Assembly (NCBI GenBank): GCA_964493715.1
Contig: CAZBPC010000001.1
Coordinates: forward strand, 8,006-44,282
Reading direction: 5' to 3'
DNA: 36,277 nt
Source of the DNA: an uncultured archaeon
GTDB lineage: Archaea; Asgardarchaeota; Lokiarchaeia; Sigyniarchaeales; SOKP01
Part shown: positions 1,912 to 17,708 of the stretch, piece after piece
How the letters are laid out: each line of letters opens with the position of its first letter
How positions within the stretch are numbered: position 1 is the stretch's first letter
Notes under the pieces: model-generated
Databases searched by the model: none
What the model saw: the letters and a program-made list of their open reading frames with translations, nothing else
Told to the model about the DNA's origin: nothing
Position numbers and translations under genes: made by a program

Positions 1912-4089
1912 ATGGAAGATATGGATGAAAAACCTCGATACCTTAATTATAATTTACCCATTACAGAAAGAATTGATGATCTAATTTTAAGGCTGACACT
2001 TGATGAAAAGATTTCTCAGTTTTTGAATAATGCAATGGCGATTGATCGCTTGAACATTCCTAAATACGATTGGTGGAACGAAGCGCTTCATGGTATCGGT
2101 TTTGCAGGGACTGCTACTATTTTCCCTCAAGCCATAGGACTCGCTGCTAGCTTTGATTTAGAATTGATGAGTGAAGTAGCTAAAGCAATTTCTGATGAAG
2201 GGAGAGCAAAACATCACGAAGCTGTAAGAAATAATCAAAGAAAAATCTACCAAGGTTTAACTTTTTGGTCACCAAATGTAAACATTTTCAGAGATCCACG
2301 TTGGGGGAGGGGTCAGGAAACATACGGAGAGGATCCTCACCTTACTTCTCAAATGGGTGTGACTTTTATCAAGGGCTTACAAGGAGATCATCCAAAATAT
2401 CTAAAATTAGTAGCTACTCCCAAACATTTCGTTGCTTATAGCGGATTAGAGCACGAGAGACACTTTTTTGATGCAAAAGTAGGCAAAAAAGATCTATTCG
2501 AAACATATCTCCCTGCGTTCGAAGCATGTATAAAGGAGGGAAAAGCAGAAGGCATAATGGGTGCATATAATCGCGTAAACGGTGAACCATGTTGTGCGAG
2601 TAAATACTTGCTTCAAGATATATTGCGGGAGAAATGGAAGTTTAAAGGACATGTTGTTTCTGATTGTGGGGCTATTAAGGACATCTACCAAGATCATAAA
2701 GTTGTTAAAACAGGAGCAGAGGCTGCTGCTATGGCAATAAATGCAGGTTGTGATTTAATTTGTAGTTTAGGAATTGCTTTAAAAAAAAATAGGAAAATTA
2801 GATGGGATTGGATAAATAATGCCGTTCAAGAAGGACTTTTGACTGAAGATGTGATTGATAAAGCCTTGAAAAGATTATTCCGTGCAAAATTTTTACTTGG
2901 CATGTTTGATCCTCCCGAAATGGTTCCGTATACTACTATTCCTTATGAAGTAAATGATAGCGAAACGCACAGGCAATTAGCATTACAAGCTGCACGAAAA
3001 TCAATGGTACTTCTTAAAAACGAGGAAAATGTCCTTCCATTAAAGAAAGATATTAAAAAAATGGCCGTGATAGGTCCAACAGCAGAGAACAAAGATGTGC
3101 TACTGGGTAATTATTTTGGGACACCATCGAGATATACTACAATCTTACAAGGAATAAAAGAAAAAGTTACCGGAAAAACTGAGATATATTATGCTGAGGG
3201 GTGTCCCTTAAAAGAAAAATCAGAAGATGGTTTTGGTGAAGCAATTAAAATAGCAAAAGAAGCAGACGTCATTATCATGGTATTAGGAATAAGTCCTCGT
3301 TTAGAAGGGGAAGAAGGACAAGCTATTGAATCCGATTTATTTGGAGATAGAATAGATATTGGTCTTCCAGGTAGTCAAAATTCCTTATTAAAAGTGATTC
3401 ATAATCTAGGAAAACCGATGGTACTAATATTAACCGGTGGGAGTGCGCTATCGTTTGTACAAGCTAAAGAAATGATCCCAGCAATCCTTTTTGCGTGGTA
3501 TCCTGGAGAAGAAGGTGGAAAGGCAGTTGCTGATGTAATTTTTGGGGATTACAATCCTGCTGGTCGATTACCGATAACTTTTTATAAAAATGTAGATCAA
3601 CTTCCTGAAAGTAGAAATTATAATATGAAAGGAAGAACATATCGCTATTTTGAGGGAGATCCATTATATCCCTTCGGTTTTGGATTAAGTTATACGAATT
3701 TTCATTATGAGAATTTGGACATCTCTACTGATAAAGTAAGAATTGGGGAAGATATTCTTATCAGTGTTGAATTAGAAAATACGGGCGGCAATTTTGGCGA
3801 AGAGGTAGTTCAATTATATCTTTCTCACACGTCTTCCAAATATAATGTTCCGATTCGTGAATTAAAAGGATTTAGGAGAATAAAACTTATTAAAAATGAG
3901 AGAAAGGTCGTGAAATTTACATTACACCCGCATGATTATTCCACGGTTGATATGGAAGGAAACAGGATTGTTGATCCGGGAGAAATAATTATTACGATTG
4001 GCGGATCTCAACCGGAATTTAAGGAAAACAACGAAAATTTTGTTAGGGGGACCCTTAATCTTATTGGGAAATCTTTAAAGCTCGATTAA
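1912..4089 (+). CDS. Glycoside hydrolase family 3 (beta-xylosidase/beta-glucosidase) with C-terminal FnIII-like domain, cytoplasmic
   Basis: WWNEALHG, RDPRWGRGQETYGEDP, PKHF, nucleophile VVSDCGA, acid/base EGEE, YPFGFGLSYT, ELKGFRRI. No signal peptide. Confidence 0.95.
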   Translation: MEDMDEKPRYLNYNLPITERIDDLILRLTLDEKISQFLNNAMAIDRLNIPKYDWWNEALHGIGFAGTATIFPQAIGLAASFDLELMSEVAKAISDEGRAKHHEAVRNNQRKIYQGLTFWSPNVNIFRDPRWGRGQETYGEDPHLTSQMGVTFIKGLQGDHPKYLKLVATPKHFVAYSGLEHERHFFDAKVGKKDLFETYLPAFEACIKEGKAEGIMGAYNRVNGEPCCASKYLLQDILREKWKFKGHVVSDCGAIKDIYQDHKVVKTGAEAAAMAINAGCDLICSLGIALKKNRKIRWDWINNAVQEGLLTEDVIDKALKRLFRAKFLLGMFDPPEMVPYTTIPYEVNDSETHRQLALQAARKSMVLLKNEENVLPLKKDIKKMAVIGPTAENKDVLLGNYFGTPSRYTTILQGIKEKVTGKTEIYYAEGCPLKEKSEDGFGEAIKIAKEADVIIMVLGISPRLEGEEGQAIESDLFGDRIDIGLPGSQNSLLKVIHNLGKPMVLILTGGSALSFVQAKEMIPAILFAWYPGEEGGKAVADVIFGDYNPAGRLPITFYKNVDQLPESRNYNMKGRTYRYFEGDPLYPFGFGLSYTNFHYENLDISTDKVRIGEDILISVELENTGGNFGEEVVQLYLSHTSSKYNVPIRELKGFRRIKLIKNERKVVKFTLHPHDYSTVDMEGNRIVDPGEIIITIGGSQPEFKENNENFVRGTLNLIGKSLKLD

Positions 4090-4210
4090 TTTTTTTATCA
4101 AATTTTTTATGAGTAAACTCTTCTTAAATATCTCTTTATATAAAATTTTTATAGTTGGAATTTAATAATAAATATAAAAGTAAAAAAACTGAATAAACTT
4201 CTTGATTACC

Positions 4211-4612
4211 ATGAGAATAAAGAAAATAATAAGTATCGATGAGCGAGGGCGCATTGTGATACCTAAAGAAGCACGGAACGCTCTTGGGATTACTACGAAT
4301 TCACAATTAATGATGATCAGCGATTCAGAAGCAAAGGAAATTCGAATTACTCCAATAGGGCTCTCCGGAGATAAGATCCCAATAAAACTACGGGTCACCA
4401 TGGCAGATATACCGGGAGCACTTGCTCGACTTGCAACATTATTTGGAAATCTGGGATTGAGCATGATGTATAGTGAAGCAGTAATAATTGAAAAAGATAA
4501 AACAGCAGTCTGGACAGTAATTTCGGAAAGGCCTGATAATCTGGATGATTTAAAAGAAGAACTCATGAATCAAGGTGGGGCAATAAAAGTAGAGATACTT
4601 CCCTTAGAATAA
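4211..4612 (+). CDS. AbrB/MazE/SpoVT-family DNA-binding protein fused to an ACT domain
   Basis: IDERGRIVIPKEARNALGI is the AbrB signature; MADIPGALARLATLFGNLGLSM is the ACT signature. ATG at 4211 preferred over TTG at 4202. Confidence 0.85.
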   Translation: MRIKKIISIDERGRIVIPKEARNALGITTNSQLMMISDSEAKEIRITPIGLSGDKIPIKLRVTMADIPGALARLATLFGNLGLSMMYSEAVIIEKDKTAVWTVISERPDNLDDLKEELMNQGGAIKVEILPLE

Positions 4613-4637
4613 ATATTAAAAATTTAGGTACATCTTA

Positions 4638-5366
4638 ATGGCTAAAAAGAAGAAGAAAGATATAAGAAATGATATTGTTTCATCATATTCTCTTGATAAT
4701 GCTCTAAAATCATCTGAAAAAACGGGAGCAGACCTTCAAGGATTATTAAAAGGAGTATCAGAAGATAAAGGATTTATAACTCCTAAAATAGAGGAACAGA
4801 GAGTCGCCCCTCAATTATCGCACGAATCGAAGAAAAAAATAGCTGAAGCATATATACAGGAGGATGTTCCATTAGTTCAGAGGGAAAATGTAGAAAAAAG
4901 TACTGAAGTAAACATAATAAAAACTGCACCTTCTCTAAAAGCAGAAGAGTTGAAACCTCATATTCCAGCAACTGTAATAAAACCTTCTTTTTCTAAAAAA
5001 GATAGTATATATATAAGCTTGGCTGACTTTTTCCAAGAAATGTACAATGGATATAATGTACGTTATGATAGGTGGGAAAATTCAATATCTTCAATATTGA
5101 CTATTTTACGAAAAATGAGGAAAATCACTAAGAAAAATACAGAGGATCTCGTAGAATCTATTACAAACATGCATCATAAGATACAGATTAACTTAGAAAA
5201 TTTTAAAATAAAAAGAGATGAAGTTGAAAAAGTCGCTGGTGTTGATGTAGAATCAATGTCAGGTGAATTCAAAAAGGTTTTGGGATTATTAGAACTGCAA
5301 GTTAAAGAGTATCAACTAAAGAAGTTAACAGATGAATACATTCATTTTCAGCATCTTCTCTCTTGA
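4638..5366 (+). CDS. Hypothetical protein: basic N-terminus, disordered middle, C-terminal coiled-coil/helical region
   Basis: 242-aa ORF, tightly spaced with neighbours. MAKKKKKD start; helical, heptad-like C-terminal ~110 aa. Confidence 0.7.
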   Translation: MAKKKKKDIRNDIVSSYSLDNALKSSEKTGADLQGLLKGVSEDKGFITPKIEEQRVAPQLSHESKKKIAEAYIQEDVPLVQRENVEKSTEVNIIKTAPSLKAEELKPHIPATVIKPSFSKKDSIYISLADFFQEMYNGYNVRYDRWENSISSILTILRKMRKITKKNTEDLVESITNMHHKIQINLENFKIKRDEVEKVAGVDVESMSGEFKKVLGLLELQVKEYQLKKLTDEYIHFQHLLS

Positions 5367-5408
5367 ATTCCTAATTGAATTTTGGAAAAAAAATCAATAC
5401 AATAAATT

Positions 5409-6584
5409 ATGCCATCATCAAGTAAATCGCAAGATCGTCCTTTAATCTTAGATATTGGAAGTAATACTTTTCGAATGGGATGGGCAGGTGATGATTTTCC
5501 TGATATCATTGCTCCAAGCGTTTATGTAGATCTTTCTGATTTTATATTTACATCTGATGTATTAGAGGGATTAGAAGAGATTTATCTTCAGAATTCTGAA
5601 CAAGAATATTTTGTTGGTCATGCTGCTCTAAAATATCAATATATATTAAGGCTTCACGAGTTTAAAAAAGAGAATAATTATAACTTATTATTGAAATTCT
5701 TTTATTATTATTATCAACAACTTGGAATAGAAGAACGATTCCTATTCAAACAACCTTTGATCATTTTAACTTCATTTAACATGTCAGATCTGGAAAAGGA
5801 AAAGTATAAGGAAATATTTCTTGAATCATTAGGATTTCCGGCACTTTTATTTTTATCAGATGACCAAGCAATATTATCAACAATGCAAAAAACAAGTGGC
5901 GTAATTATAAATATTGGTGAAAGTACTACATTAATTTCAACCATATTCCATGGTTTCACTAATATCATGGCTAAGGATGTCTTCCCTATTTCAAGCAAAG
6001 ATTTGACAAATTACATGTTAAATTTGCTCATATCCAAAAAAATTTTTGAAGAAAATCTCTATATTGATGAAAAAATTGCAAATGAAGTAAAAGAGAGATA
6101 TTCTCTTTGTGCTCTCTATCCCGAGGAGGAGATCAAGAAAGTCAAGGAAGGATTGACGAAATATGATAGAATGATTACTTTACCGAATAACTTGAAAGTT
6201 AAAATAAATATTGAGCGAATTCAAGTTTCGGAACCATTATTTGATCCAAAAAAGATCCACATAGATTATATAAGCTTAGCTGAAGCCGTTTCAAAAGTGA
6301 TAAAAGCTTGGGATAGAGAGAATTGGGAAGAATTAATACCAAACATCATCTTAGCAGGAGGGGGGAGTTTGATTCCAGGATTAGCTGAGAGACTTAAGAT
6401 AGAATTGATGAGTTTCTTCTCTGAGAAAATAAAGAATAAAATAAATGTTATCGCTCCTTCTGGTCGTGAAAATATGGGATGGATTGGTGCTTCAATATTA
6501 TATTCTAAAGACCAATTACACAAGGGATGGATTGAAAGTCCAAGAAAGGAACAAAAGCTAGTTACTGAAGAAAAGGAGGAGTAA
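5409..6584 (+). CDS. Divergent eukaryote-like actin-related protein (Asgard Arp-type)
   Basis: LILDIGSNTFRMGWAGDDFPDIIAPS matches actin [24 protein letters not shown]. Also QAILS, ERIQVSEPLFDP, NIILAGGGSLIPGLAERLKIEL, APSGRENMGWIGASIL (actin APPERKYSVWIGGSIL). Confidence 0.93.
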   Translation: MPSSSKSQDRPLILDIGSNTFRMGWAGDDFPDIIAPSVYVDLSDFIFTSDVLEGLEEIYLQNSEQEYFVGHAALKYQYILRLHEFKKENNYNLLLKFFYYYYQQLGIEERFLFKQPLIILTSFNMSDLEKEKYKEIFLESLGFPALLFLSDDQAILSTMQKTSGVIINIGESTTLISTIFHGFTNIMAKDVFPISSKDLTNYMLNLLISKKIFEENLYIDEKIANEVKERYSLCALYPEEEIKKVKEGLTKYDRMITLPNNLKVKINIERIQVSEPLFDPKKIHIDYISLAEAVSKVIKAWDRENWEELIPNIILAGGGSLIPGLAERLKIELMSFFSEKIKNKINVIAPSGRENMGWIGASILYSKDQLHKGWIESPRKEQKLVTEEKEE

Positions 6585-6590
6585 AATGAA

Positions 6591-9176
6591 ATGACGGTAA
6601 GGCTTGATGTGAAAAAACAGTTTTTAAATAAATTTCAAGATTCTGTAATTCAGGCTAGAAAACTACTTCAAGTAGGAAACCATCATTGGGCAGATCGCTT
6701 ATTAACAGAATTATATTTTGAAATAGAAAGAAGTGAATGGTTAGATATCCAGAAAAAGCACCAATTAATAATGATCATTACAAATTCATGGTGGATGTAC
6801 ATAAATTCACTGATGCAATTAAAAACTGAAGAATCTAAAGTTGATATAACCAAATATATTGATGGTTATAAGCGATTTTTCTCTTTTTTATCAAAATTAG
6901 ATAACTTTTATCTTTTCAATAATTTTACAACTAAGTTATTGAAATCTTTCATTGGAATGGAAGAAATCTCTCTTTCTGGCATCACTAAATTCATAAATTC
7001 TTTTTGTGTAAAAGTGAGTGAACGAAAAGAAGATTTAAAATTAGTTGAATTACAAATCCTTCTAATGTATATAAGGAAATCCGTGATCCCTCAAGAATTT
7101 TATCATTTTAGTATGGAAATTATCGGGAGAACTGTTTTTAAACTAGAACCAAGTAAGAGATCCTTATTTTTATATATTCTATTAGAAAATATTAACTTAA
7201 ATTATCAGTTAATGGAAAATTCTGAAGAATTTGTAAGACAGATTAATAAAATTTTGCAAAATAGGCTCCCAAGTTATCTTAAAAATGAATTTAGTAACCT
7301 TAATCGGATCTCTGTCAATGAAAGAAATTTAACAACAATTTTAGGAGATCTTGAAGAATTAATATATTATCTTAATGATATTGGAGAAGCTTCTTGGATT
7401 ACAGTTATAATTAAGAATGTGTTTGAAAAACTAAATAGATTCAAATCATTTGGAGATGCGATTACGTACATCAGAAAATTCATTGATTTTTCGTTAGAAA
7501 GAAATCAATTTGATATTGCATTTGAAATATATGACTATCTCGAAGAGCTCTTTATGGTTCAGACTGATTTGGGATATGACAATATTTTAATTGAGTTGTG
7601 GGTTGAAGCTTCAAAAAAATTTGTAGATATGAAAGAAAAAAGATATTTATTGCAATCTTTAGAAAAGTTGAATACTCACTTAAAGGTTCCGCAAACTAAT
7701 GCTCAAATTTATCATTATTTCTATACATGTAATTTCTTATGGCAATTTAAATCAATCTTTTTTTCTTTAGAACAAAGAGATTTTTGGAGGATGATGTTTT
7801 ATAGAGTTTTATTTGAGGAACAAGATTTTGAATTAGTTAGTAAGATAATTCCTTATTTAGATAAGGATTTGCAGGAGATTATCTCGTTTCCAAAACAACT
7901 TTATAATGATGTTAACTCGTTTATTAGTGATATTTACACATTTGACGATGAACGATTTGCACCAATAATGCTTGAAGAAAATTTTGAAATTAAACAAATG
8001 ATACTGAGAATTGATGCTAATGGATCAATATCATATCGGATGATATCATTACAAGACCAGGTAAATGAAGGAAGAATTTTCAATGAATATTGGAATGACA
8101 CACAAATTATCGAGATATTCAACGATATATTCTCTAATAACCCTGAGAAAACGTTTAATTTTACTTTGATGGATATTGGTAAATTATTATATAATTTCCT
8201 CCCTAGAACAATAAGAAACTTCTTTAAACAGTTTCGGGTAAAGACTTTAAAGGTCGTTCCAGAGATATATTTTATACTTGAGAACATGACAATTCCGTTC
8301 CAGTTAATTTATGATAATAACTTTTTCTTGCTTAAATATTCTATAGGTTACATTATTGGGGAACCTCCTTTAGGAGGAGTATCTTTTGATTATCATACCG
8401 ATACTTCTATTGAAGATATACCTCAAAAGGATATTTCAGTTCTAATTATAGATTGCACTAATTCTGTTAATCCTTTAAAATGGAATGAATCAATAAAGAA
8501 CAAAGAATTAATTTTTCCTTTTCCAACTGGAGCAGAGGAACTCAAGTATATCACTAATTTTTTCAATAATAGGGATGAAGTCAAAGAAATTATAGTTTTA
8601 TCTGGAGAGTATTCTACCAGAAGTCATATTTTGTCCCAATTAGCTAGTAGAAAGCATAATATCATACATTTTGTTGGTAACATCTTTTATTCTAATTGGA
8701 ATCCATATAAGAGCTTTTTTCTAGCTAACAATAATGAAATTGTCACTTTCTATGAAATCAACTCTACTTTGAAATCCCAGAATGGAAATGTCTACCCATT
8801 CCTATTTTTTAATTGTCAACTATTTGATGTTAAGGGAAAAAGGATAAGAAATGCACTAAAAAGGTTTGGAGATATAATGAAGGAATTTGATCATAATTAT
8901 ATTACAGGGATTATTGCTCGAAGCATTCCTATCTTTGATGAAGAAACCCAAGAAATCTCATCCAATTTTTATATAAATTTATTAAAACATTCAAGCCAAG
9001 GATTTGCTCTGCTTAAAGCCCGGCAAGAATGCATGTCGAAGAAAATGACATTTCTTATTGAACAGGAATTACAAGATTTAAAAGAAGATGAAGCTACGAT
9101 TAAAGTTGATTTACAAAATTCACGAGCAATCTCCAGCTTTATTCTATATGGAAAACCTTGGAAAAAATTAAATTAA
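6591..9176 (+). CDS. Large alpha-helical N-terminal region plus C-terminal CHAT (caspase HetF/separase-like) domain, probably catalytically degenerate
   Basis: CHAT-like segments: IGKLLYNFLP, IPFQLIYD..FFLLKYSIG, GAEELKYI, NIIHFVGNI, FLFFNCQ, NFYINLL, ALLKARQ, SFILYGKP (canonical AFVLYGDP). Confidence 0.8.
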   Translation: MTVRLDVKKQFLNKFQDSVIQARKLLQVGNHHWADRLLTELYFEIERSEWLDIQKKHQLIMIITNSWWMYINSLMQLKTEESKVDITKYIDGYKRFFSFLSKLDNFYLFNNFTTKLLKSFIGMEEISLSGITKFINSFCVKVSERKEDLKLVELQILLMYIRKSVIPQEFYHFSMEIIGRTVFKLEPSKRSLFLYILLENINLNYQLMENSEEFVRQINKILQNRLPSYLKNEFSNLNRISVNERNLTTILGDLEELIYYLNDIGEASWITVIIKNVFEKLNRFKSFGDAITYIRKFIDFSLERNQFDIAFEIYDYLEELFMVQTDLGYDNILIELWVEASKKFVDMKEKRYLLQSLEKLNTHLKVPQTNAQIYHYFYTCNFLWQFKSIFFSLEQRDFWRMMFYRVLFEEQDFELVSKIIPYLDKDLQEIISFPKQLYNDVNSFISDIYTFDDERFAPIMLEENFEIKQMILRIDANGSISYRMISLQDQVNEGRIFNEYWNDTQIIEIFNDIFSNNPEKTFNFTLMDIGKLLYNFLPRTIRNFFKQFRVKTLKVVPEIYFILENMTIPFQLIYDNNFFLLKYSIGYIIGEPPLGGVSFDYHTDTSIEDIPQKDISVLIIDCTNSVNPLKWNESIKNKELIFPFPTGAEELKYITNFFNNRDEVKEIIVLSGEYSTRSHILSQLASRKHNIIHFVGNIFYSNWNPYKSFFLANNNEIVTFYEINSTLKSQNGNVYPFLFFNCQLFDVKGKRIRNALKRFGDIMKEFDHNYITGIIARSIPIFDEETQEISSNFYINLLKHSSQGFALLKARQECMSKKMTFLIEQELQDLKEDEATIKVDLQNSRAISSFILYGKPWKKLN

Positions 9177-9234
9177 TATAGTCTAAGTTAAATAGTATAT
9201 CTATTAGATAAATTATAATTAATGTCTAGGTATT

Positions 9235-9771
9235 ATGTCAGATAGAATATTAGAACTTCGAACGGAGAATCAAAGATTGAAGCAACAAGTACAAAGTTTA
9301 GAAAACAAGGTATTATCTCTTGTTGGGATGGTTAGATTCGAATCTTCAGGAGGTGCAGAAAAGAAGAATGTTTTGAATGAACACCTCCTCGAGTTAATTA
9401 GTAACACAAAAACTCAACTTAATATTGTTTCCACTAAAATTGATAAGTTTTATGCTACTGAATTAAAACGATTAACACAGAGAGGTGTAGCTGTTTTGTT
9501 AATAATGAATGATAGAGGTAATATTCCGCAAGCGCATCAACAAGTGTATGATGATTTAAAACTCACACCAGGTATAAAAATTATTAATAATCCTAACGTT
9601 CGATATTTATTAGTATTTAACTCTGAGGAAGCTATCTATTCTGGAGGGTCCTTAGATAAGGATGACTTAGAAAAATCTATCCTCATTGTCTCAATTATTA
9701 AAGAAGCTTCAAAGTTGCGAAAAATTGCTGAAATCTTTAGTTTAATGCTTCCATCTTTTATGCGGAAATAA
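9235..9771 (+). CDS. N-terminal coiled coil plus degenerate PLD-fold (TrmB effector-domain-like) protein
   Basis: Heptad LRTENQRLKQQVQSLENKV. PLD-like pattern LLELISNTKTQLNIVS...ELKRLTQRGVAVLLIM. The HxKxxxxD..GSxN site reads VRYLLVFNSEEAIYSGGSL. Confidence 0.65.
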   Translation: MSDRILELRTENQRLKQQVQSLENKVLSLVGMVRFESSGGAEKKNVLNEHLLELISNTKTQLNIVSTKIDKFYATELKRLTQRGVAVLLIMNDRGNIPQAHQQVYDDLKLTPGIKIINNPNVRYLLVFNSEEAIYSGGSLDKDDLEKSILIVSIIKEASKLRKIAEIFSLMLPSFMRK

Positions 9772-9857
9772 GTTAGTGAATTTTTATTAAATTATACTTT
9801 ATTTATAATTTCAGATTAAAATTAATTGAGCCTCTTGAATTATTTACTTGAATAGTG

Positions 9858-12032
9858 ATGTCCACAGAAGAGAAAAAGTATAATGCTCATAGGATTATAA
9901 CTCAATTTGGGTTAAAATCACTTTTATTTAACGATGCAATGAAGGTTCTCACAGATCTTGCAATCAAATCAGATAAATTGTTTAAAAAACATTATGATTC
10001 TTGGTATTCTCATTTTAAAAACATATATGGAGTAAAAATTACACGGGATCTTTTTTTAAAGCATACCTACTACTCAATTGTGCTTAAGACCTTACTATTG
10101 GGTAAACTAGGAAATCATAATGATGTGGAAGGAGAATTCACGTTCTTCAAGAAATTTTTTAGTTATGAAGAAGTATTATTTAGCTGGGTCGATCCTGACT
10201 ATTATTTCAAAATATTACACTATAATTCACATCAAAATGTATCTTTTTCTCATGAAGACCTTTTTCATGAATTATATCAACAAATATTCATTTCAGAAAC
10301 TCGTCATAAAATTGGAGAATTTTACACTTCCCCAACTCTAGTTAATGAAATGGTAGATGATTCCTATACGCTAGGCATGAAAGTTTTAGATCCATCTTGC
10401 GGATCTGGTACATTTCTCATAGAAATTTTACTTAAAATACTCAGAGCTCCCCTTGATGAAGATAAGAAAAAAGAATATTTAACATATATTTTTGGCTTTG
10501 ATGTTAATCCATTAGCCATTTTAACTACAAAAGCTAACATATTAATGCTGCTACTTGATTTTATTGATATTGAAAACTTAAATGATACGAATTTAAATAT
10601 TTTCTTAATGGATTCTTTATTCCCAGAACAGATGAAATTAAATCTAAATTTTGATATTAAACAAATTTATCACTCATTTGATTTGATAATTGGGAATCCT
10701 CCTTGGTTAACATATAAAGATTTACTTGATAAATCCTATCAAAATAAAATTAGAGAATTAGCGGAAAAAATCTTAATCAAACCTCCAAGTCAATATATTA
10801 CTCATATAGAATTAGCCAGCGTATTTTTCTATTCTGTCCCTTTGAAATATTTAAAAATAAGTGGAAAAATATTTTTCGTCATTACCAAAAGTGTGCTAAA
10901 TGGGGATCATTGCTATAGATTTAGGTCATTTAGAATATTTGATCAAATAGAAATTTGGGATTTCCCCGAGAGTTATTTCTTTAATGTAAATCATATCTGT
11001 TTGAAAGCCACCTATATTGGAAAAGACAATATTATTCCAATACAAGCTAAATTTCCTATACCAGTGAAAATATATGATAAGGATATAAAATTTAAAAAAA
11101 AAGTAATGTATAATAGTATAAAGTTAGAAGATGATGGGGCAAGAATTATATTGTCTGAAGAAAATTTATCAAATTTTAAGGAATTATCTGAAAGCATCTA
11201 CAAAAATTTTTTTTACCAAGGAGCTACCCTAGTTCCAAGATCTTTACTCTTTTTCAAGATCGATGATAAATTGGAAAAAGTTTATCTAATCTCACCAGAT
11301 CTTGATGTAATTTCTCGTTCAAAAGCTCAATGGAAATTTAATTTTAATCAAACAGAAATTGAAAAAGCATTTCGTTATAAAACTTTTCTAAATATGGATT
11401 TAATTCCTTTTTGTATAAAGGGTTTCAGAAATGTTTTTTTACCAATAGATAAAGACTTTCAATTTGACGAGGTTTACCTTAAAAAATATCCGAAATCACT
11501 CAAGTTTTACAAGGAAATGAATGATTACTATATGAAAAATAAAAAATCAACCAGTGATATTAATACACTCTTTTCAAACGTTAATTATTGGAACAAATTA
11601 ACAAAACAAGTCAATAATAAAGCAAACATTGTTGTTTATAATGCAAGTGGCTCTAACTTGAAATCTGCAGTCATTATAAACAGGAAGAAGAAGCTTATTA
11701 TCGGTTCGGAGAACTATTATTACTCTACAGATTCTCTGTATGAAGCATATTTCCTCTCTGCGATTTTCAATTCGCCAATCTTATCTAAAACTATAAAACT
11801 TATAAAGTCAAGTCGACACATACATAAAAGACCGTTTTCTTACCCAATACCAAAATATGACGATGATAATCCACTCCATCGAGCTTTAGCAACTAAAGGT
11901 AAAAAATATCATACTGTAGTTAGAGATCTGGTTTTGAATAATCCAAAAATCAACGCGAATAAAACCAGAACATTTATTCATCATAAGTTAACAAAATTGA
12001 ACGAACTAGTAAATCAAATTATTTTCAAATAA
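9858..12032 (+). CDS. N6-adenine DNA methyltransferase (gamma-class, type IIG/N-6 methylase-like) with C-terminal target-recognition region
   Basis: GEFYTS, motif I VLDPSCGSGTFL, FGFDVNPLA, motif IV IIGNPPW. No recognisable endonuclease domain. Confidence 0.9.
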   Translation: MSTEEKKYNAHRIITQFGLKSLLFNDAMKVLTDLAIKSDKLFKKHYDSWYSHFKNIYGVKITRDLFLKHTYYSIVLKTLLLGKLGNHNDVEGEFTFFKKFFSYEEVLFSWVDPDYYFKILHYNSHQNVSFSHEDLFHELYQQIFISETRHKIGEFYTSPTLVNEMVDDSYTLGMKVLDPSCGSGTFLIEILLKILRAPLDEDKKKEYLTYIFGFDVNPLAILTTKANILMLLLDFIDIENLNDTNLNIFLMDSLFPEQMKLNLNFDIKQIYHSFDLIIGNPPWLTYKDLLDKSYQNKIRELAEKILIKPPSQYITHIELASVFFYSVPLKYLKISGKIFFVITKSVLNGDHCYRFRSFRIFDQIEIWDFPESYFFNVNHICLKATYIGKDNIIPIQAKFPIPVKIYDKDIKFKKKVMYNSIKLEDDGARIILSEENLSNFKELSESIYKNFFYQGATLVPRSLLFFKIDDKLEKVYLISPDLDVISRSKAQWKFNFNQTEIEKAFRYKTFLNMDLIPFCIKGFRNVFLPIDKDFQFDEVYLKKYPKSLKFYKEMNDYYMKNKKSTSDINTLFSNVNYWNKLTKQVNNKANIVVYNASGSNLKSAVIINRKKKLIIGSENYYYSTDSLYEAYFLSAIFNSPILSKTIKLIKSSRHIHKRPFSYPIPKYDDDNPLHRALATKGKKYHTVVRDLVLNNPKINANKTRTFIHHKLTKLNELVNQIIFK

Positions 12033-12188: not shown

Positions 12189-13340
12189 TTGAATTTTAAA
12201 GATTTAGGTATAAGCGAACGATTCATTAACGCTTTAAATGATATAAACATAACGACGCCGACTCCCGTCCAAAAAAAAGCAATACCCCTCCTTTTAGAAG
12301 GGCAACATGTTATGGCTCAAGCCCGGACTGGAAGCGGAAAAACCTTGGCATACGTTCTTCCTATTTTAGAACGCATGGAACCTGCATTAAACGAAGCTTT
12401 AGTTTTAGTGCCAACCAGGGAACTTGCTGTACAAGTCCATCAAGTAATTTCGGATTTGAAACATCCCAAAATAAAATCCATGACCATATATGGGGGCGTA
12501 TCAATTAACAATCAAATTGCTAAATTGCAACGTGGTGTCAATTTTATCGTAGGAACACCCGGAAGAATTATTGACCTTTATAAAAGAAGAATCTTGAATT
12601 TAAGCAAGATAAAGTTTATTTGTCTTGATGAAGCTGACCGTTTATGGGACTTTGGATTTGCCCCTGATGTGAAATATATAATAAACCAAATAAAATCAAA
12701 GTATCAGTTTATGTTATTTTCAGCAACACTTCATTCAGAAATTAGAAATTTGGTTAAAGATTATTCCGGAAATCAGTTTACATTTCTTAATTTAAGCAAA
12801 GATGATCTTACAGTTCACAATACAAAACAGGTTTACTATTTAGTGGATAATTTCAAGGATAAATTTAAGACATTTACAAAGATATTAAGGAAAGAAAAGC
12901 CCGAACATGCACTGGTATTTGTAAACACCAAGAAAACAGTAAACTGGTTAAGTGATAAATTAAGAACTCAAAAAAATTCGAAATTCAAAGTTGCAGCAAT
13001 CTCAGGCGATTTTTCTCAGTTTCAAAGAGAAAACATACTTAATAAGTTCAAGAATCATGAGATTAATCTTCTAGTTGCCACAGATGTGGCAGCACGTGGA
13101 TTAGATATTGATAATATTTCTCATGTTATTAATTATGATGTTCCAAAATTTCCAGAAAACTATGTCCACCGCATTGGGAGAACATCTCGCATGAATAAGA
13201 AGGGAGTAGCAATTACACTTTGCATGAAAGATGAGTATGAATATTTATGTCATATTGAAGGAATAATTGACAAAGAAATAACTCAGAGATTCTTAACTGA
13301 AGAAGTAGAAAATGTTCATTACTATAATCCATTTTACTAA
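12189..13340 (+). CDS. DEAD-box ATP-dependent RNA helicase
   Basis: Q motif PTPVQ, ARTGSGKT, PTRELA, GG, TPGR, DEAD, SAT, ARGLD, HRIGRTSR. TTG start. Confidence 0.96.
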   Translation: MNFKDLGISERFINALNDINITTPTPVQKKAIPLLLEGQHVMAQARTGSGKTLAYVLPILERMEPALNEALVLVPTRELAVQVHQVISDLKHPKIKSMTIYGGVSINNQIAKLQRGVNFIVGTPGRIIDLYKRRILNLSKIKFICLDEADRLWDFGFAPDVKYIINQIKSKYQFMLFSATLHSEIRNLVKDYSGNQFTFLNLSKDDLTVHNTKQVYYLVDNFKDKFKTFTKILRKEKPEHALVFVNTKKTVNWLSDKLRTQKNSKFKVAAISGDFSQFQRENILNKFKNHEINLLVATDVAARGLDIDNISHVINYDVPKFPENYVHRIGRTSRMNKKGVAITLCMKDEYEYLCHIEGIIDKEITQRFLTEEVENVHYYNPFY

Positions 13341-13470
13341 CTTTAATGCAATAATTTTATTCTATTTTTTTTACACTTATCAAAATTTAAGAGTCCATTC
13401 ATAGTTCTTTTTTCCATACTTTATTAGAACTAATATCCTTAAAATACTCAAACTCAAATAGGTGAATGGC

Positions 13471-13650
13471 ATGTATCATGAAGAATCAATCTTGAAAGCT
13501 GATGAACTAGATAAAGGTAAGGATCCAGAGAATCCATACATTTTGGATAAAGATGTTCAAAATTTTTTAGAAATTGCTGATTATTTATCGAAAGTATTAT
13601 CAGCAAGTGATTTAATCTCTGAAATACTTGAATTCCTCGATTCTGAATAG
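13471..13650 (+). CDS. Small acidic hypothetical protein (59 aa)
   Basis: AGGTGA SD-like site at 13460-13465 before the ATG at 13471; amphipathic helical C-terminus; T-rich tract after the stop. Confidence 0.55.
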   Translation: MYHEESILKADELDKGKDPENPYILDKDVQNFLEIADYLSKVLSASDLISEILEFLDSE

Positions 13651-13719
13651 TAATATCTTATTATTTTTTTATTTAAAAATAATTTTTGGGGATGACAAAT
13701 CTCCCGTCCTTTTGGTGAT

Positions 13720-16700
13720 CTAAAGATTTTTTAAAGATGCCCCACAAATTGCACAAAATCGGGAAGGCATTTCTATTCGAGAACCACAAAATGGACAAAA
13801 GTTAGGTTGATCACTTTTAGAGTCAATATTTTCATTAACTTGAGCTTCTATTTGATAAGGCATAATGATACTGGTTCGAGGAGATTTCTTTCTTCTTAAT
13901 AAAAAGAAAGTAATACTTAACAATGCAACTATTCCGATCCCTAAGCTGGTTAAGAATATGGGAATTAAGTTAGGATTTTCTGGTTGTGTGGGAGGACTTT
14001 GGATATTAGTTATAAAATATCTTAATTCTGATTGTATCACCATTCCTTCAGTGGTAATTCCATTAAAAATAACAGAGTGAATACCATTTTCAGGAATTGG
14101 AATGACCTTATTTCCTGCAATTGTAATATCAGGGTTTCCATCTAAAGAATAACCGATCCATTCAAAATTATCACTTTGATTAAAACTTAGCAACAAACCT
14201 TCATTTAGATTATCTCCAAGAGCATAACTTTGGTCCCATGATAACCCAACCGCATCAAAATATATGATGCCAGAACTTCCAGAATAGCCAGATCTTATCT
14301 GGATGAATGAAATATCTGGAACTGGTAAGTGAAATGAACCTCCCTCTACTTCTTTTATACCATTTACATAAATATCTGTCGTATCAGTATCACAATCAAA
14401 GTCTATACGTATATGAAACCATTCTTGATCTGAATATTTTCCAGCGGCAAATTCGACATAGGTATTAGGAGCAGGACTATAACGGAAAATCCCGTTGTTA
14501 TCAGTATCAATCGTTATAATAAAACCAGTAGTAGTATCATCATTGCCTTGAATTACAAGAGCACAGTCACCACTCTCTTTGTAAACCCAGCATTCAATAG
14601 TACCCTTCACCTTAGGTGATTTAAAATTATATTGAGCCGTGGCATCTGCTCCTCCGCCTGTTGCCGTATCAGCATCAGCAATTAAAACGACCTTTTTATG
14701 ATTATCTTTTTGATCTTGAACTGAAATTGAACAAGACCCCGAGGGTGCTACTTCCGTCCATTCATCTGGTATGGTCCCAACTTCATCGTTTTCAAATCCA
14801 TAGGTCGCTGGGTAGTATCCACTCATTGGCTCGGTGTAGGTTTTACTTTCAGGTGTGATGATATTTATATAAGATGTAGTATCCACTGAAAAATGCTGAA
14901 CAGCGGATTCATACATGGTACCCCTGCTATCATTTCCAAACACTTGAATAAAATGAAGACCGTTATTAGGCATTGGAATGGTTTTATTTCCTAAAATTGT
15001 CCTGTTAGCTTGCCCATCAAGAGAATATCCAGTCCAATTGAAATTTGTATTTGTGTCATAACTAAGCAACAATCCTTCATTGAGGTTATCTCCGATATTA
15101 TAATTTGGATCCCATGAATAGCCAACGGCATCCCACCAAATTGTAAATCCCGATCCAGCAACACTAGTATGGACTTGAAATGTACCTACATCATCATTTT
15201 CTTCATAAGTAAAAGGGCCATATCGAATCGTGTTTATATAGATGAAATAAGTATATTGACTTGTTAATCCAGAGTATTCACTGGAATATGAACCTCTAAA
15301 ATCAAAGCGAACATGATACCACGTGTTTATTTGAGGATTTGGTGCTCCAGGTATGGGATAGCTACCTGAACTATTTGTAAATAGAAACTGATTTGAATCA
15401 ATGTTTAAGGTTGGTCCAAGAGTTACGGACCCACTTAATCGATAATAATTCCCAGCGGTTGCCGAAGTAAACCGACACCAGAATTCTATCGTACCATTTG
15501 TCTGAAGATCATAGTATTCAAGAAGATCTGCTGCACTTGAGCCTGAATTATCTATCACTTCGTACACTTTTTTGTGGCCATCGATTTCTGAAACAACATT
15601 ACCTTTTTGTAAAGATACATCATCCCAATCCGGATCATCTTGGCCATTAATAACATTTTCAAACCCATAAGTAGCGGGGTAATAACCCCCCACTGGTCCA
15701 GTATAGGTTTTATTTTCAGGAGTGATTACATTGATTGGAGATACCGTGAAATATCTTATATCAGATTGACACATCGTTCCTAATGTATCTGTGCCGAACA
15801 CTTGAATGTTATGCAGTCCATTTGAGGGCAAGGGAATAGTTGTATTACCTAAAATGGTTTTGTTCACGCTTCCGTCTAAAGAATAACCTTGCCAATCCAA
15901 ATTCGTGGAATTTTTATAACTTAATAATAAACCCTCATTAAGATTACCTCCAATGTCATAATTGGAATCCCATGAATATCCAATAGCATCATAATAGGTA
16001 TAATATCCTGTTGAACCTACCCACCTTGTTTCTAATGTAAGTTGTACAAGCGATGTTGAACCAATTTGAAAGGGTATGTCGGTTAAATATCTGATTTCAT
16101 CAATATAAACATCAAACTTCTGAGAAGTACAGTTGAAATCGATTCGAAGATGATACCATTGATCACTATTACAAGGTGCAATATCATTCCAGACACTTTG
16201 ATTATTCCATCGAAACATACCTCCTAAAGAAGTTATATCAATTGGAAATGTTCCGAAAGGATCTTTTATCCTGATAGATGTTGCTTCTGCGGGGTCAGTT
16301 CTCCGGAACCACATTTCAACTGTTCCTGCGATTTGATCAGTGAAATTGTTAATCATGCGAGCGCTATTACTAGTTGTTCCATCATATAGCTCCACTACAT
16401 TCTTATGAGCATCTAACTCATCAATAACTTGTATAGAGCATGGTGCACCAATTTCAAATGTCCAATCATAGGGTAGATTCCCAATATTATCATTCTCAAA
16501 TCCATAAGTCGCTGGGTAGTATCCACTCATGGGTTCAGTGTAGGTTTTATTTTCGGGAGTAATTAAATTTATTTGAGAAATAAAGAAATATCTTATCTCA
16601 GATTGATACAGCGTTCCTATTGGGGGTCCTGCGCCTGACACTTGAATGCTATGCGGACCAATTGATGGCATTGGAATGGTAGTGTTTCCTGAGATTGTTT

Positions 16701-17568
16701 TATTTACGCATCCATCTAAAGAATACCCTTGCCAATATAAGGCAATGCTACTCTCGTAGCTCAAAAGCAATCCTTCATGCATGTTATCTCCGACGTGATA
16801 TAAGATTATGTCGGTATCTTTATACCATGAATATCCTATGGCATCTATATAAGCTGTACCAGTCGAAGTCCACCCTCCCTTTATATTAGTGCTTCCAATA
16901 TTGTTTACTGGATTTAAGAAATTACCCCCATCCACCCGTAAGATCCCATCAATATACCATTCATATGTATCAGAAGTAGTATCAAAGATTATTTTATTAT
17001 GATACCACTGGTTAGAGACGTAGGATTGAACTACATTTCCTTCCATGTCTTTAAACGTATTATCACTCATTGAAACGGCCCCAGCATGAGTTCCCATGAT
17101 TCCTTCATGAAAGTGATAAGCGATATTATTAGTTCCTGAGACCTCAGTACTCCACCACCATTCGATAGTGCCCATAATTTGAGTTGAATCAAAATAATTA
17201 CGTGCTTCAGCATTTCCATTGGTATTTCCATCATGAACTCGTAAAACTTTCTTATGCCCTTGATAATTATTACTAATAACAACATCGCAATTTGATTGAA
17301 TTGCATTGGTTCCATCAACGTAAGCGATATTTGTCCTTGAAGTTCCATCCAATTCATTTTCGAATCCAAATGTTCCTGGGTAATAACCTGCCGTTGATTG
17401 AATATTTGTTTTATTTTCGGGTGAGATGATGGAAATCTCACCTGCACTTGACTTTGGAAGCTCGAGTTTATATTGAGGCTTAAAACTTTGATACGTTATG
17501 CCAGTTACGGTAAATAAAAAGATAAAGAGAAGTATACTTTTATATACAAATGATTTTTTTATTTTCAT
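13720..17568 (-). CDS. Large membrane-anchored surface protein: signal/TM, four ~285-aa repeats (Ig-like plus lectin/LamG-like), C-terminal TM and cytoplasmic zinc ribbon
   Basis: N-terminal hydrophobic segment. Four repeats start I.IITPENKTY..GYYPATYGFE and end EGLLLSY..W.GYSLDG..N.TI.GN.TIP.P..G.H.IQV. TM LIPIFLTSLGIGIVALLSITFFLL followed by RRKK. C-terminus CPFC..CAIC. ATG at 17568 preferred over TTG at 17586. Confidence 0.85.
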   Translation of the reverse strand: MKIKKSFVYKSILLFIFLFTVTGITYQSFKPQYKLELPKSSAGEISIISPENKTNIQSTAGYYPGTFGFENELDGTSRTNIAYVDGTNAIQSNCDVVISNNYQGHKKVLRVHDGNTNGNAEARNYFDSTQIMGTIEWWWSTEVSGTNNIAYHFHEGIMGTHAGAVSMSDNTFKDMEGNVVQSYVSNQWYHNKIIFDTTSDTYEWYIDGILRVDGGNFLNPVNNIGSTNIKGGWTSTGTAYIDAIGYSWYKDTDIILYHVGDNMHEGLLLSYESSIALYWQGYSLDGCVNKTISGNTTIPMPSIGPHSIQVSGAGPPIGTLYQSEIRYFFISQINLITPENKTYTEPMSGYYPATYGFENDNIGNLPYDWTFEIGAPCSIQVIDELDAHKNVVELYDGTTSNSARMINNFTDQIAGTVEMWFRRTDPAEATSIRIKDPFGTFPIDITSLGGMFRWNNQSVWNDIAPCNSDQWYHLRIDFNCTSQKFDVYIDEIRYLTDIPFQIGSTSLVQLTLETRWVGSTGYYTYYDAIGYSWDSNYDIGGNLNEGLLLSYKNSTNLDWQGYSLDGSVNKTILGNTTIPLPSNGLHNIQVFGTDTLGTMCQSDIRYFTVSPINVITPENKTYTGPVGGYYPATYGFENVINGQDDPDWDDVSLQKGNVVSEIDGHKKVYEVIDNSGSSAADLLEYYDLQTNGTIEFWCRFTSATAGNYYRLSGSVTLGPTLNIDSNQFLFTNSSGSYPIPGAPNPQINTWYHVRFDFRGSYSSEYSGLTSQYTYFIYINTIRYGPFTYEENDDVGTFQVHTSVAGSGFTIWWDAVGYSWDPNYNIGDNLNEGLLLSYDTNTNFNWTGYSLDGQANRTILGNKTIPMPNNGLHFIQVFGNDSRGTMYESAVQHFSVDTTSYINIITPESKTYTEPMSGYYPATYGFENDEVGTIPDEWTEVAPSGSCSISVQDQKDNHKKVVLIADADTATGGGADATAQYNFKSPKVKGTIECWVYKESGDCALVIQGNDDTTTGFIITIDTDNNGIFRYSPAPNTYVEFAAGKYSDQEWFHIRIDFDCDTDTTDIYVNGIKEVEGGSFHLPVPDISFIQIRSGYSGSSGIIYFDAVGLSWDQSYALGDNLNEGLLLSFNQSDNFEWIGYSLDGNPDITIAGNKVIPIPENGIHSVIFNGITTEGMVIQSELRYFITNIQSPPTQPENPNLIPIFLTSLGIGIVALLSITFFLLRRKKSPRTSIIMPYQIEAQVNENIDSKSDQPNFCPFCGSRIEMPSRFCAICGASLKNL
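14010..17436 (-). repeat. Four tandem intragenic repeats of ~840-870 bp
   Basis: Unit starts near 17436, 16572, 15735 and 14868. Near-identical DNA at conserved ends, e.g. gtcgctgggtagtatccactcat near 14805 and 16508. Boundaries approximate. Confidence 0.85.
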
Positions 17569-17708
17569 ATTGATTCGCGCATGCAAATTTTAGTCCTATG
17601 TATATTAAGATATAATTGAATATTTAAATATGCTATATGCATGCAGTTCATATTAAAACTCCTTAGTACAAGACACTCCCGAATATTTGCGTCATTCTGG
17701 TAAAATTA

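Follow-up and report, generated by a model that had tools for sequence, protein, structure and literature searches.

The DNA considered here, hereafter the window, is a stretch of 36,277 nucleotides from an uncultured archaeon (GTDB lineage Archaea; Asgardarchaeota; Lokiarchaeia; Sigyniarchaeales; SOKP01), taken from positions 8,006 to 44,282 of contig CAZBPC010000001.1 in GenBank assembly GCA_964493715.1. It contains a compact cluster of five open reading frames (ORFs) on the + strand, which encode, in order, an AbrB-ACT protein, an orphan helical protein, a divergent actin, a TPR-like solenoid joined to a CHAT domain, and a coiled coil joined to a phospholipase D (PLD) fold. The products of genes 2 to 5 are referred to as CC, Arp, CHAT and PLD, and the letters f, g, G and L designate families, genera, genomes and loci. 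A preliminary description of the same DNA had reported five co-oriented genes with gaps of 25, 42, 6 and 58 base pairs (bp), and these coordinates were reproduced; the domains that it had named (AbrB, actin, CHAT and PLD) agree with our family scans and, for CHAT and PLD, with modelled folds and their Foldseek matches, the ACT and PLDc_2 scores lying under their cut-offs. The five genes are as follows.

4211-4612, + strand: AbrB-ACT, 133 amino acids (aa), an AbrB/SpoVT-type DNA-binding domain and an ACT-like domain recognised by family matches; the promoter-proximal gene
4638-5366, + strand: CC, an orphan protein with a lysine-rich N-terminus, a variable linker and a conserved C-terminal domain
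5409-6584, + strand: Arp, a divergent actin-family protein (PF00022) of 391 aa
6591-9176, + strand: CHAT, a pseudo-protease of 861 aa with a TPR-like alpha-solenoid (residues ~1-455), a beta-rich linker domain and a caspase-like CHAT fold (~467-861)
9235-9771, + strand: PLD, 178 aa, with a long N-terminal helix (residues 2-30), a PLD-fold domain lacking the HKD motif, and an LPSFMR tail

The analysis demonstrates a kept gene order, co-orientation, short gaps, joint presence and absence of genes, the folds, and a loss of catalytic residues that extends across the families. The cluster is probably a vertically inherited, order-specific operon for the non-enzymatic subunits of one functional module with two sub-modules. 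The cluster sits in an ordinary chromosomal region. Its G+C content of 0.26-0.33 lies inside the range of the window (0.26-0.39); a family scan identifies a VWA protein, a GH3 glycosidase, an N6 DNA methyltransferase and a DEAD-box helicase at its flanks, and gyrase A/B, deoxyhypusine synthase and an aminoacyl-tRNA synthetase are encoded farther out.

Gene order, range and inheritance

Among 20 fetched stretches, all seven loci from other families have CC-Arp-CHAT-PLD in the same order and on the same strand within the limits of their contigs, the proteins being 22-43% identical, while the VWA, GH3, methyltransferase and helicase flanks are found only in f1 and are replaced in the other families. 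The same picture emerges from 45 loci in public records, which overlap with the fetched stretches and, coming from related species, are not independent of one another: CHAT is immediately preceded by Arp in 42 of 43 evaluable loci (the exception being L099) and immediately followed by PLD in 39 of 40 (the exception being L069), and CC lies upstream in 42/42. The operon-like unit of non-catalytic folds that the preliminary description had postulated is borne out, and its gene order is kept across families. The distances between the genes, for which starts chosen by script were used, are also short:

AbrB-ACT to CC: 14-38 bp
CC to Arp: 30-161 bp
Arp to CHAT: -4 to +6 bp in the window and six loci (five from other families, one of the same genus), 10-63 bp elsewhere
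CHAT to PLD: 46-103 bp

Insertions of 1.5-4 kb occur between the VWA gene and AbrB-ACT and between PLD and the methyltransferase gene; the block itself is interrupted only in L063, by a partial duplicate that separates CC from Arp. In this same-genus locus, positions 3393-4726 hold the first 130 Arp codons and an N-terminal fragment of CC, placed before the full Arp gene. The arrangement is also altered in g12 (L112, G052:C113, 11831-15232, and L113), where a 749-aa CHAT-like protein without the catalytic His is encoded upstream of CC, and the PLD-like gene lies on another contig beside a homologue of unk405 (a protein of f2 loci described below), on the opposite strand.

Conservation of the gene neighbourhood across Asgard lineages had been proposed as a check on the system. 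The order CC-Arp-CHAT-PLD is indeed kept in families f1-f3, but in the genomes searched it is not pan-Asgard and was found in one order only. The CHAT protein was found in 29 of 35 genomes of the same genus and, within the same order, in 7/14 genomes of f2, 1/1 of f3 and 0/4 of f4. When 299 genomes of the phylum were searched with the CHAT profile (1e-10), matches were obtained in 61/66 genomes of f1 and 2/7 of f2, and in 0/224 genomes of 27 other families, to which one partial f5 match, to the CHAT domain only, must be added. The profile of the CC domain (1e-5) gave 61/66 in f1, 7/7 in f2 and 0/225 in the genomes of other families. In the searched genomes the cluster occurs only in families f1-f3, all of the same order, and these include both named cultured strains, Promethearchaeum syntrophicum MK-D1 (L095) and Candidatus Lokiarchaeum ossiferum B35 (L096), which carry the four-gene form. 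The cluster is single-copy, its sequence identity drops with taxonomic distance and its surroundings are of housekeeping character; its inheritance is vertical. Seven records (L069, L078, L079, L082, L084, L086 and L091) are titled Hodarchaeota, Thorarchaeota, Hermodarchaeota or 'Nanopelagicaceae bacterium'; their cluster copies are 51-66% identical and show f1 synteny, and the labels of the submitters probably do not match the placement of these sequences.

Folds and lost active sites of the products

The CHAT protein of the window matches PF12770 with 25.7 bits (cut-off 24) over residues 530-818, and 10 of 15 family members match this domain. In its AlphaFold2 model, built from a 15-sequence alignment (mean predicted local distance difference test, pLDDT, 80.2), about 22 helices between residues 5 and 455 are followed by an alpha/beta region at 467-861. 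Foldseek placed Csx29/TPR-CHAT first (7zoq_A, 6.0e-10; 8eey_B, 6.6e-8), with further matches to DdvA (8rot_A, 1.0e-7), separases (9hma, 2.3e-6; 5u1t, 1.9e-5) and SAVED-CHAT (1.8e-4). Structural alignment with VIA-align identified the caspase-like fold in residues 613-861 of the model by comparison with SAVED-CHAT 8tl0_C (Z 16.7, 187 residues, root-mean-square deviation 3.1), and aligned residues 467-861 with the separase protease fragment 5fc2_B (Z 13.0, 285 residues, deviation 4.2). Both methods thus recover the likeness to TPR-CHAT proteins and separase that had been suggested from the helical-plus-CHAT layout. At the level of sequence, the CHAT profile produced 0 matches at E<=10 among PDB chains, separases included, and the N-terminal part yielded only sub-threshold, TPR-like leads in the ESM Atlas (0.76-0.82).

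For the active site, the 15 family members were aligned with four canonical CHAT proteins from genomes of the same class, whose motifs are IHFAGHA and LSAC/INAC. In the family, the site of the catalytic His reads IIHFVGN and that of the Cys F-N-x-Q, and the His position is occupied by Asn in 15/15. In 46 further distinct relatives, representing 64 loci, the His position holds Asn in 45, Ile in one and His in none, while the Cys position holds S (21), T (12), A (7), V (3), G (2) or D (1), and Cys in 0/46. The window protein is the only member with a Cys at the Cys position, and its His is replaced by Asn. The catalytic His-Cys dyad is accordingly not found across the family. Several genomes contain in-frame stops: one or two TAA/TAG codons interrupt the CHAT or CC matches in G264:C3, G183:C104, G219:C513, G173:C20, G020, G225, G180, G078, G163, G202, G261 and G089. 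These could represent pseudogenes, assembly errors or matches that overrun the ends of genes.

The product of gene 5 has likewise lost its active site. PLDc_2 scores 21.5 bits on the window protein, below the cut-off of 27, and matches 12/14 members (best 3.2e-6), while FilR1_middle, a TrmB-type middle domain, matches 5/14 (best 3.6e-5). The model (pLDDT 82.9) consists of a helix at residues 2-30 and an alpha/beta domain, and its Foldseek matches comprise NucT (6ehi_B, template modelling (TM) score 0.67/0.74), Nuc (1byr, 0.62/0.71), FAM83 (5qhm/5lzk, 0.57-0.62) and Zucchini, as well as TrmBL2 (5bpi_D, 3.0e-7; 5bpd_C, 3.2e-7) over 170-184 columns that include the long helix; by profile, NucT is matched at 0.0017. 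The HKD region reads N-V-(R/K/T)-Y-L-L-V-F, with Asn at the His position in 14/14, His in 0/14 and no Asp in register. Since all 14 members lack the HKD His, the protein would not be expected to act as a nuclease or phospholipase. No helix-turn-helix (HTH) family was detected in these 14 proteins, and the winged-helix domain is absent, because the chain starts directly with the helix. On its modelled fold, gene 5 is best described as encoding a TrmB/TrmBL2-like protein without the winged-helix domain. The LPSFMR tail is invariant in the family, the chain stopping 0-4 residues after it. The PLD-like profile retrieves 447 proteins, of which nearly all that are named by their source are called hypothetical, and distant paralogues (1e-15 to 1e-23) are present in f6 and f7.

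Arp matches PF00022 with 162.7 bits (cut-off 27; 1.4e-47) over residues 10-376, showing an actin fold over the whole chain. Its best PDB matches are actins at 6e-36 to 1e-27, and yeast actin (2.8e-31), from whose alignment the residue numbering is read, is aligned over its full length. In actin, D11, Q137, D154, D157 and H161 belong to the nucleotide site and serve hydrolysis. The window protein keeps the equivalents of D11, G13, S14, Q137 and the GG loop, and carries the substitutions D154 to N, D157 to E, G158 to S and H161 to L. Across 14 family members, the equivalent of Q137 is found in 9/14, that of D154 in 5/14 and that of H161 in 0/14, so the residues of the nucleotide site are not conserved. 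The claim that all three enzyme folds of the cluster lack canonical catalytic residues therefore stands for the CHAT His and the HKD His, but holds only partly for Arp, and the CHAT protein of the window keeps its Cys. No orthology to a particular eukaryotic Arp is assigned; PDB actins and Arp1 score alike (1e-27 to 1e-31). The genome of the window encodes three further actin-family proteins, namely a Lokiactin-like protein (7e-161 to actin), an intermediate one (~1e-90) and a 508-aa form, and the cluster Arp is the most divergent of the three actins of 370-391 aa.

An orthologue is encoded in L. ossiferum, where the published primers for the actin-related protein (ARP) UYP47647.1 match L096 just upstream of the CHAT gene. 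According to the accessible portion of Rodrigues-Oliveira et al. (PMC9834061), the L. ossiferum orthologue is placed among the ARPs in the actin tree, as an unnamed ARP, and belongs to three ARPs transcribed, by reverse-transcription quantitative PCR, at lower levels than Lokiactin; by the primer match to L096, the cluster Arp orthologue is therefore one of these three low-level ARPs. An apparent Arp-CHAT fusion of 1,250 aa in L046 was ruled out, as a stop lies between both genes. In L039, an f2 locus, the Arp frame (10700-11836, - strand) has no ATG, GTG or TTG near the start of its orthologues, and the first listed start would cut ~46 conserved N-terminal residues, which suggests that the start codon is non-canonical or the annotation wrongly placed.

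CC has no Pfam, NCBIfam or PADLOC match above noise. Family alignments delimit a conserved C-terminal domain of ~120 aa (residues ~118-242), and the N-terminus reads MAKKKKK in f1 and L095. Its profile finds 82 cluster representatives among 1.84 billion proteins. The full-length matches measure ~140-350 aa with the domain at the C-terminus, about twenty shorter ones are fragments, and one match of 2,248 aa is weak and repetitive; no usable match to the domain was obtained in the ESM Atlas. In complex prediction, two runs of Arp with the C-terminal domain of CC both gave a score of 0.00, which supports no conclusion either way.

Reduced forms and the head of the unit

Some genomes keep only part of the unit. 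All three g2 genomes show Hef-PHP-CC-PLD-unk405, which is the order of P. syntrophicum (L095) minus Arp-CHAT, and both g5 genomes show AbrB-ACT-CC-PLD. In these five genomes, which are 76-93% complete, no CHAT match was found, and only 2-4 other actin-family proteins match the Arp profile, at <=200 bits. The preliminary description had regarded the system as built around the divergent actin, a claim that does not survive, given that CC and PLD stay adjacent here without Arp or CHAT. L099 is reduced in a similar manner to AbrB-ACT, CC, a 205-aa ORF, PLD and the methyltransferase, with Arp and most of CHAT missing. The ORF (5929-6546) is intact, corresponds to the last quarter of CHAT and keeps the motifs IIHxxGN, NPxxS and FGKPW; it may be a working mini-protein or the trace of a recent deletion. 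In g20, G173 shows the L099 form, while CHAT is matched at full length in two other genomes.

The CC domain and the PLD-like protein were concatenated, and a maximum-likelihood tree was calculated from 21 genomes (327 columns, LG+G4, midpoint rooting), leaving out L074, which has no PLD, and taking in only 3 of the many g1 loci. In this tree, g2 nests within the f2 carriers of Arp-CHAT (ultrafast bootstrap 84 and 80), the first branch within f2 is g5, and L099 forms the sister of the remaining f1. The simplest reading, subject to the caveats of the rooting and of treating a gene tree as a species tree, is an ancestral unit of five or four genes from which Arp and CHAT were jointly lost at least three times. 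Because g2, g5 and L099 keep CC-PLD without an intact Arp-CHAT, CC and PLD can be regarded as the core of the unit and Arp and CHAT as an accessory pair.

At the other end of the unit, AbrB-ACT starts with the ATG at 4211, which is the start common to orthologues of 133-134 aa (the ORF list has a TTG at 4202). The AbrB domain is recognised by AbrB/MazE PF04014 (27.5 bits, cut-off 24.7) and TIGR01439 (36.5 bits, cut-off 28.3), while the ACT half reaches 22.8 bits, under the cut-off of 27, and PRK08577 spans residues 4-132 with 88.5 bits, under its cut-off of 140. The gene is single-copy in the genome of the window. Within the 45 public loci it lies directly upstream of CC in 35/35 evaluable loci of f1 type and in 0/4 evaluable f2 loci, and linkage to the cluster is seen in f1, f3, g5 and L099. 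The gap between AbrB-ACT and CC in the window, only 25 bp, would leave little room for a separate CC promoter. Two elements lie upstream of the gene:

4139-4153, either strand: a 15-bp palindrome, TATAAAA and TTTTATA around a central T, ~58 bp upstream of the AbrB-ACT start
4159-4171, + strand: a second motif, AATTTAATAATAA, between the palindrome and the start codon

The palindrome, TATAAAATTTTTATA, is a perfect 7+1+7 repeat that occurs once in the window, with 0.25 occurrences expected by chance at <=1 mismatch, and exact copies stand at the corresponding position in 10 of the 14 upstream regions that were aligned (the window and 9/12 same-genus loci). Judged by its sequence and position, it is a candidate TATA or operator element of a transcription unit starting with AbrB-ACT. 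The second motif aligns in nearly all of the 12 same-genus upstream regions, and taken alone it is not rarer than chance in the AT-rich window (4 matches at <=1 mismatch against 1.46 expected). In L039, an ArsR-type HTH protein and a response-regulator-HTH protein are encoded between PHP and CC (12559-13707, - strand); they occupy the position of AbrB-ACT in f1, which suggests that a different regulator heads the unit there.

Beyond the unit, the gene at 9855-12032 encodes a 725-aa N6 DNA methyltransferase, which in L099 and in all f1 genera comes after the cluster (38-83% identity). Its family matches are to type IIG, MAD2 and PglX-like proteins, and a nuclease part is not recognisable; such conservation of an orphan methyltransferase at the family level is unusual. 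The DEAD-box helicase gene at 12189-13340 usually follows it in the genus of the window, and both are absent from f2 and f3 loci. In f2, a protein of 381-405 aa without a Pfam family (unk405) is encoded directly downstream of the PLD-like gene, with or without Arp-CHAT. It is 38-84% identical among g8, g9, g11 and g2 (L095 9159-10376; L039 6243-7388; L107, L108, L111), does not occur in the window or the f3 locus, and may be an f2-specific extra member or mere synteny. Farther along the window, 13720-17586 (- strand) encodes a probable large surface protein of 1,288 aa. It contains about five tandem repeats of ~230 aa, with a weak match to a Sialidase-like CBM, and also has a zinc ribbon and, at the C-terminus, a membrane segment. 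The 311-aa product of 22981-23916 (- strand) has matches to ABC_transp_aux and, at 3.9e-10, to the GIFT domain of IFT52, a type of domain known to occur in bacterial GldG and in the intraflagellar transport of eukaryotes.

Function and rival explanations

If the cluster is an operon for one functional module, its products can be arranged in a provisional scheme. CC and the HTH-less TrmB-like protein would form a core pair, present wherever the system exists. Arp and the TPR-pseudo-CHAT scaffold would form an accessory pair, encoded between the core genes, often translationally coupled, and gained or lost only together. Arp would be bound by the TPR-pseudo-CHAT protein, and the pair would dock on the coiled-coil core of CC and the TrmB-like protein. 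The dead caspase cleft may serve as a peptide-binding site, for which the invariant LPSFMR tail of the PLD-like protein is a candidate ligand, as it ends at or near Arg in the manner of a cleavage product. Separase is held by a pseudo-substrate partner, securin, and Csx29 is paired with Csx30; by analogy with these pairs, the tail would perhaps play a pseudo-substrate-like role. Arp itself may be a non-polymerising, possibly still nucleotide-binding, structural or switch subunit. In most lineages AbrB-ACT is the first gene, behind the conserved palindromic promoter element, and where it is linked it might autoregulate the unit in response to a small molecule.

The output of the module can be specified with less confidence. 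A regulatory assembly linked to DNA or transcription is possible, though short of an even chance; this reading derives from the TrmBL2-like and AbrB parts, the lysine-rich N-terminus of CC, and neighbours concerned with DNA metabolism in both families (methyltransferase and helicase in f1, Hef and PHP in f2). A role as regulator or anchor of the Lokiactin cytoskeleton, suggested by the actin fold only, is slightly less likely still, and the remaining probability falls to some other output. In its most specific form the proposal describes a non-catalytic machine, in which an obligate heterodimer of Arp and TPR-pseudo-caspase grips the Arg tail of PLD in its dead cleft, and the coiled-coil core links this assembly to DNA or to Lokiactin; so detailed a picture is offered as a tentative and improbable one.

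The simplest alternative is that the genes are conserved neighbours whose products act separately, sharing inheritance and perhaps co-regulation. Binding of the products is inferred, not observed, AbrB-ACT is unlinked in four genera and PLD is missing in G032; broad synteny, moreover, extends to unrelated flanking genes (VWA and methyltransferase in f1; Hef, PHP and unk405 in f2). However, the four-gene order survives between families whose flanking genes all differ, insertions lie only outside the block, save the partial duplicate in L063, Arp and CHAT were jointly lost at least three times while CC and PLD stayed adjacent, and the stop and start codons of Arp and CHAT overlap or nearly touch. 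We therefore consider mere neighbourhood unlikely. It is also conceivable that Arp forms filaments, as a second cytoskeletal polymer for which the other products act as nucleator, anchor or disassembly factors. The full actin fold, the equivalents of D11, Q137 and the adenine-loop glycines kept in f1, and a W-I-G-A-S-I-L segment of the barbed-end cleft region that resembles actin would be in keeping with this, but the nucleotide-site residues vary in the proportions given above, Arp is the most divergent of the three actins of its size in the genome and is dispensable in g2 and g5, and the L. ossiferum orthologue is transcribed well below Lokiactin, according to the same portion of PMC9834061. 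Filament formation is thus decidedly unlikely.

A degenerate or non-canonical defence or conflict system, with the TPR-CHAT and PLD parts as sensors or decoys, deserves mention, because TPR-CHAT proteins and PLD nucleases are common defence parts, the closest structural matches are Csx29 of type III-E CRISPR and SAVED-CHAT, and a type IIG/MAD2-like methyltransferase follows the cluster throughout f1. Nevertheless, PADLOC-DB 2.0 contains 0 families for AbrB-ACT, CC, Arp and CHAT, and only weak partial matches of the PLD-like protein to DrmC (0.0012) and MkoB (0.0023). The cluster is also single-copy, vertically inherited and fixed in its chromosomal position, the methyltransferase is absent from f2 and f3 loci, and catalytic residues are lost in every member examined. 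Because of the lack of PADLOC families beyond these two weak matches, the fixed position and the absent active sites, a defence role is very unlikely.

Several observations weigh against an operon for one functional module. The assembly of the four products is deduced from genomic context. G032 (locus L069), a genome that is 100% complete, has CC-Arp-CHAT and no PLD match, and given this genome the CC-PLD core is not absolute. Five genomes of the same genus have neither a CHAT nor a CC match, and fragmentation may or may not explain their absence, G021 and G295 being 99% complete. The tree behind the joint losses is limited by its 327 columns and its midpoint rooting. No fusions were found that would tie the products together: none among longer proteins matching the Arp profile at 1e-20 or the PLD profile at 1e-3, both of which are weak evidence, and the CC domain is never fused to another domain among its 82 representatives. 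A contig from the RNA-library run X1 (37.5 kb, of uniform depth) spans all 14.5 kb of the P. syntrophicum stretch together with genes on both strands; it is uninformative on co-transcription and may reflect DNA in the library.

The regulatory gene adds to these points. AbrB-ACT is unlinked in four f2 genera, lying in a different but conserved neighbourhood in G049 (g9), G054 (g8) and G043 (g2), and on a contig separate from the cluster in G050 (g11). The four f2 genomes without AbrB-ACT at the cluster carry a copy elsewhere, 39-46% identical, and among the neighbours of the unlinked gene are shikimate dehydrogenase and a gene for 183-213 aa in 3/3, and a GH2-like gene and FttA in 2/3. Control through AbrB-ACT, which the preliminary description had considered possible for the system, consequently fails as a general feature, and the role of this gene in the system may be lineage-specific or coincidental.

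The cluster has parts in common with several described systems. Csx29 of the type III-E 'Craspase', the best Foldseek match, has an N-terminal TPR-like solenoid followed by CHAT at a similar size, and aligns over nearly the whole cluster CHAT chain (VIA-align Z 14.4-16.0). In the cluster protein, however, no member keeps the catalytic His, and only that of the window has the Cys. The partners are Arp and a TrmB-like protein, and no Cas7-11/gRAMP, Csx30 or Csx31 occurs among the neighbours in the window and 65 related loci, which are CC, Arp and PLD-like genes with housekeeping genes at the flanks, the genome as a whole having received no dedicated cas search. Separase, with its helical scaffold, pseudo-protease domain and active caspase-like domain, is matched in layout and fold, but the cluster CHAT is half its size, lacks the catalytic dyad and was found in one archaeal order only, and no homology beyond the fold is apparent; a search of the literature on Asgard separase found only an SMC paper. 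DdvA, a CHAT anti-sigma factor (8rot_A, Z 14.3), likewise combines helical repeats with CHAT and illustrates a regulatory rather than degradative use, although it is a bacterial transmembrane protein and no sigma-factor gene adjoins the cluster.

Gene 5 shares with TrmBL2, an archaeal chromatin protein of the TrmB family, a long helix of the dimerisation type in front of a PLD-like domain that has no HKD residues, but it lacks the winged-helix DNA-binding domain of TrmB proteins, and its invariant LPSFMR tail is specific to the family. It has the single-domain PLD fold in common with NucT, Nuc, Zucchini and the DUF1669 of FAM83; in FAM83 the catalytic motif is also missing, with no relationship beyond the fold. 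Eukaryotic Arp assemblies, such as the nuclear Arp modules on HSA helices, dynactin Arp1 and Arp2/3, parallel the cluster Arp in a divergent actin fold, a degenerate nucleotide site and a probable use as non-polymerising subunits with helical partners, but contain no counterpart of the pseudo-CHAT and TrmB-like partners. The preliminary description knew of no described system of such composition, and our literature search found none either, although supplementary tables of Asgard genome papers may list the genes or their expression. The combination of Arp, TPR-pseudo-CHAT, HTH-less TrmB-like protein, orphan helical protein and optional AbrB-ACT is without described counterpart; it constitutes a candidate system, the function of which we infer.

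In the accessible portion of PMC9834061, work on cultured strains characterised only Lokiactin filaments, and Asgard genomes encode several ARPs of unassigned role. The cluster gives one ARP lineage fixed partners, together with natural 'knock-outs' in which Arp and CHAT are lost and CC and PLD are kept. With these, and with the cluster present in both named cultured Lokiarchaeia, the question of what an archaeal Arp does, and with whom, becomes directly testable, and the cluster offers a first genomic clue to the role of such archaeal actin relatives. Few separase-like architectures are on record, and to these the cluster adds a catalytically dead TPR-CHAT protein from the lineage of archaea most closely related to eukaryotes. 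If the non-catalytic machine outlined above were real, it would provide a prokaryotic precedent for Arps as regulatory subunits of large complexes, as in eukaryotes, and place a separase-type scaffold in the closest archaeal relatives of eukaryotes. Should the products assemble, they would form a system without described counterpart; should they not, the cluster would still surpass in conservation any other genomic context so far noted for an Asgard ARP.

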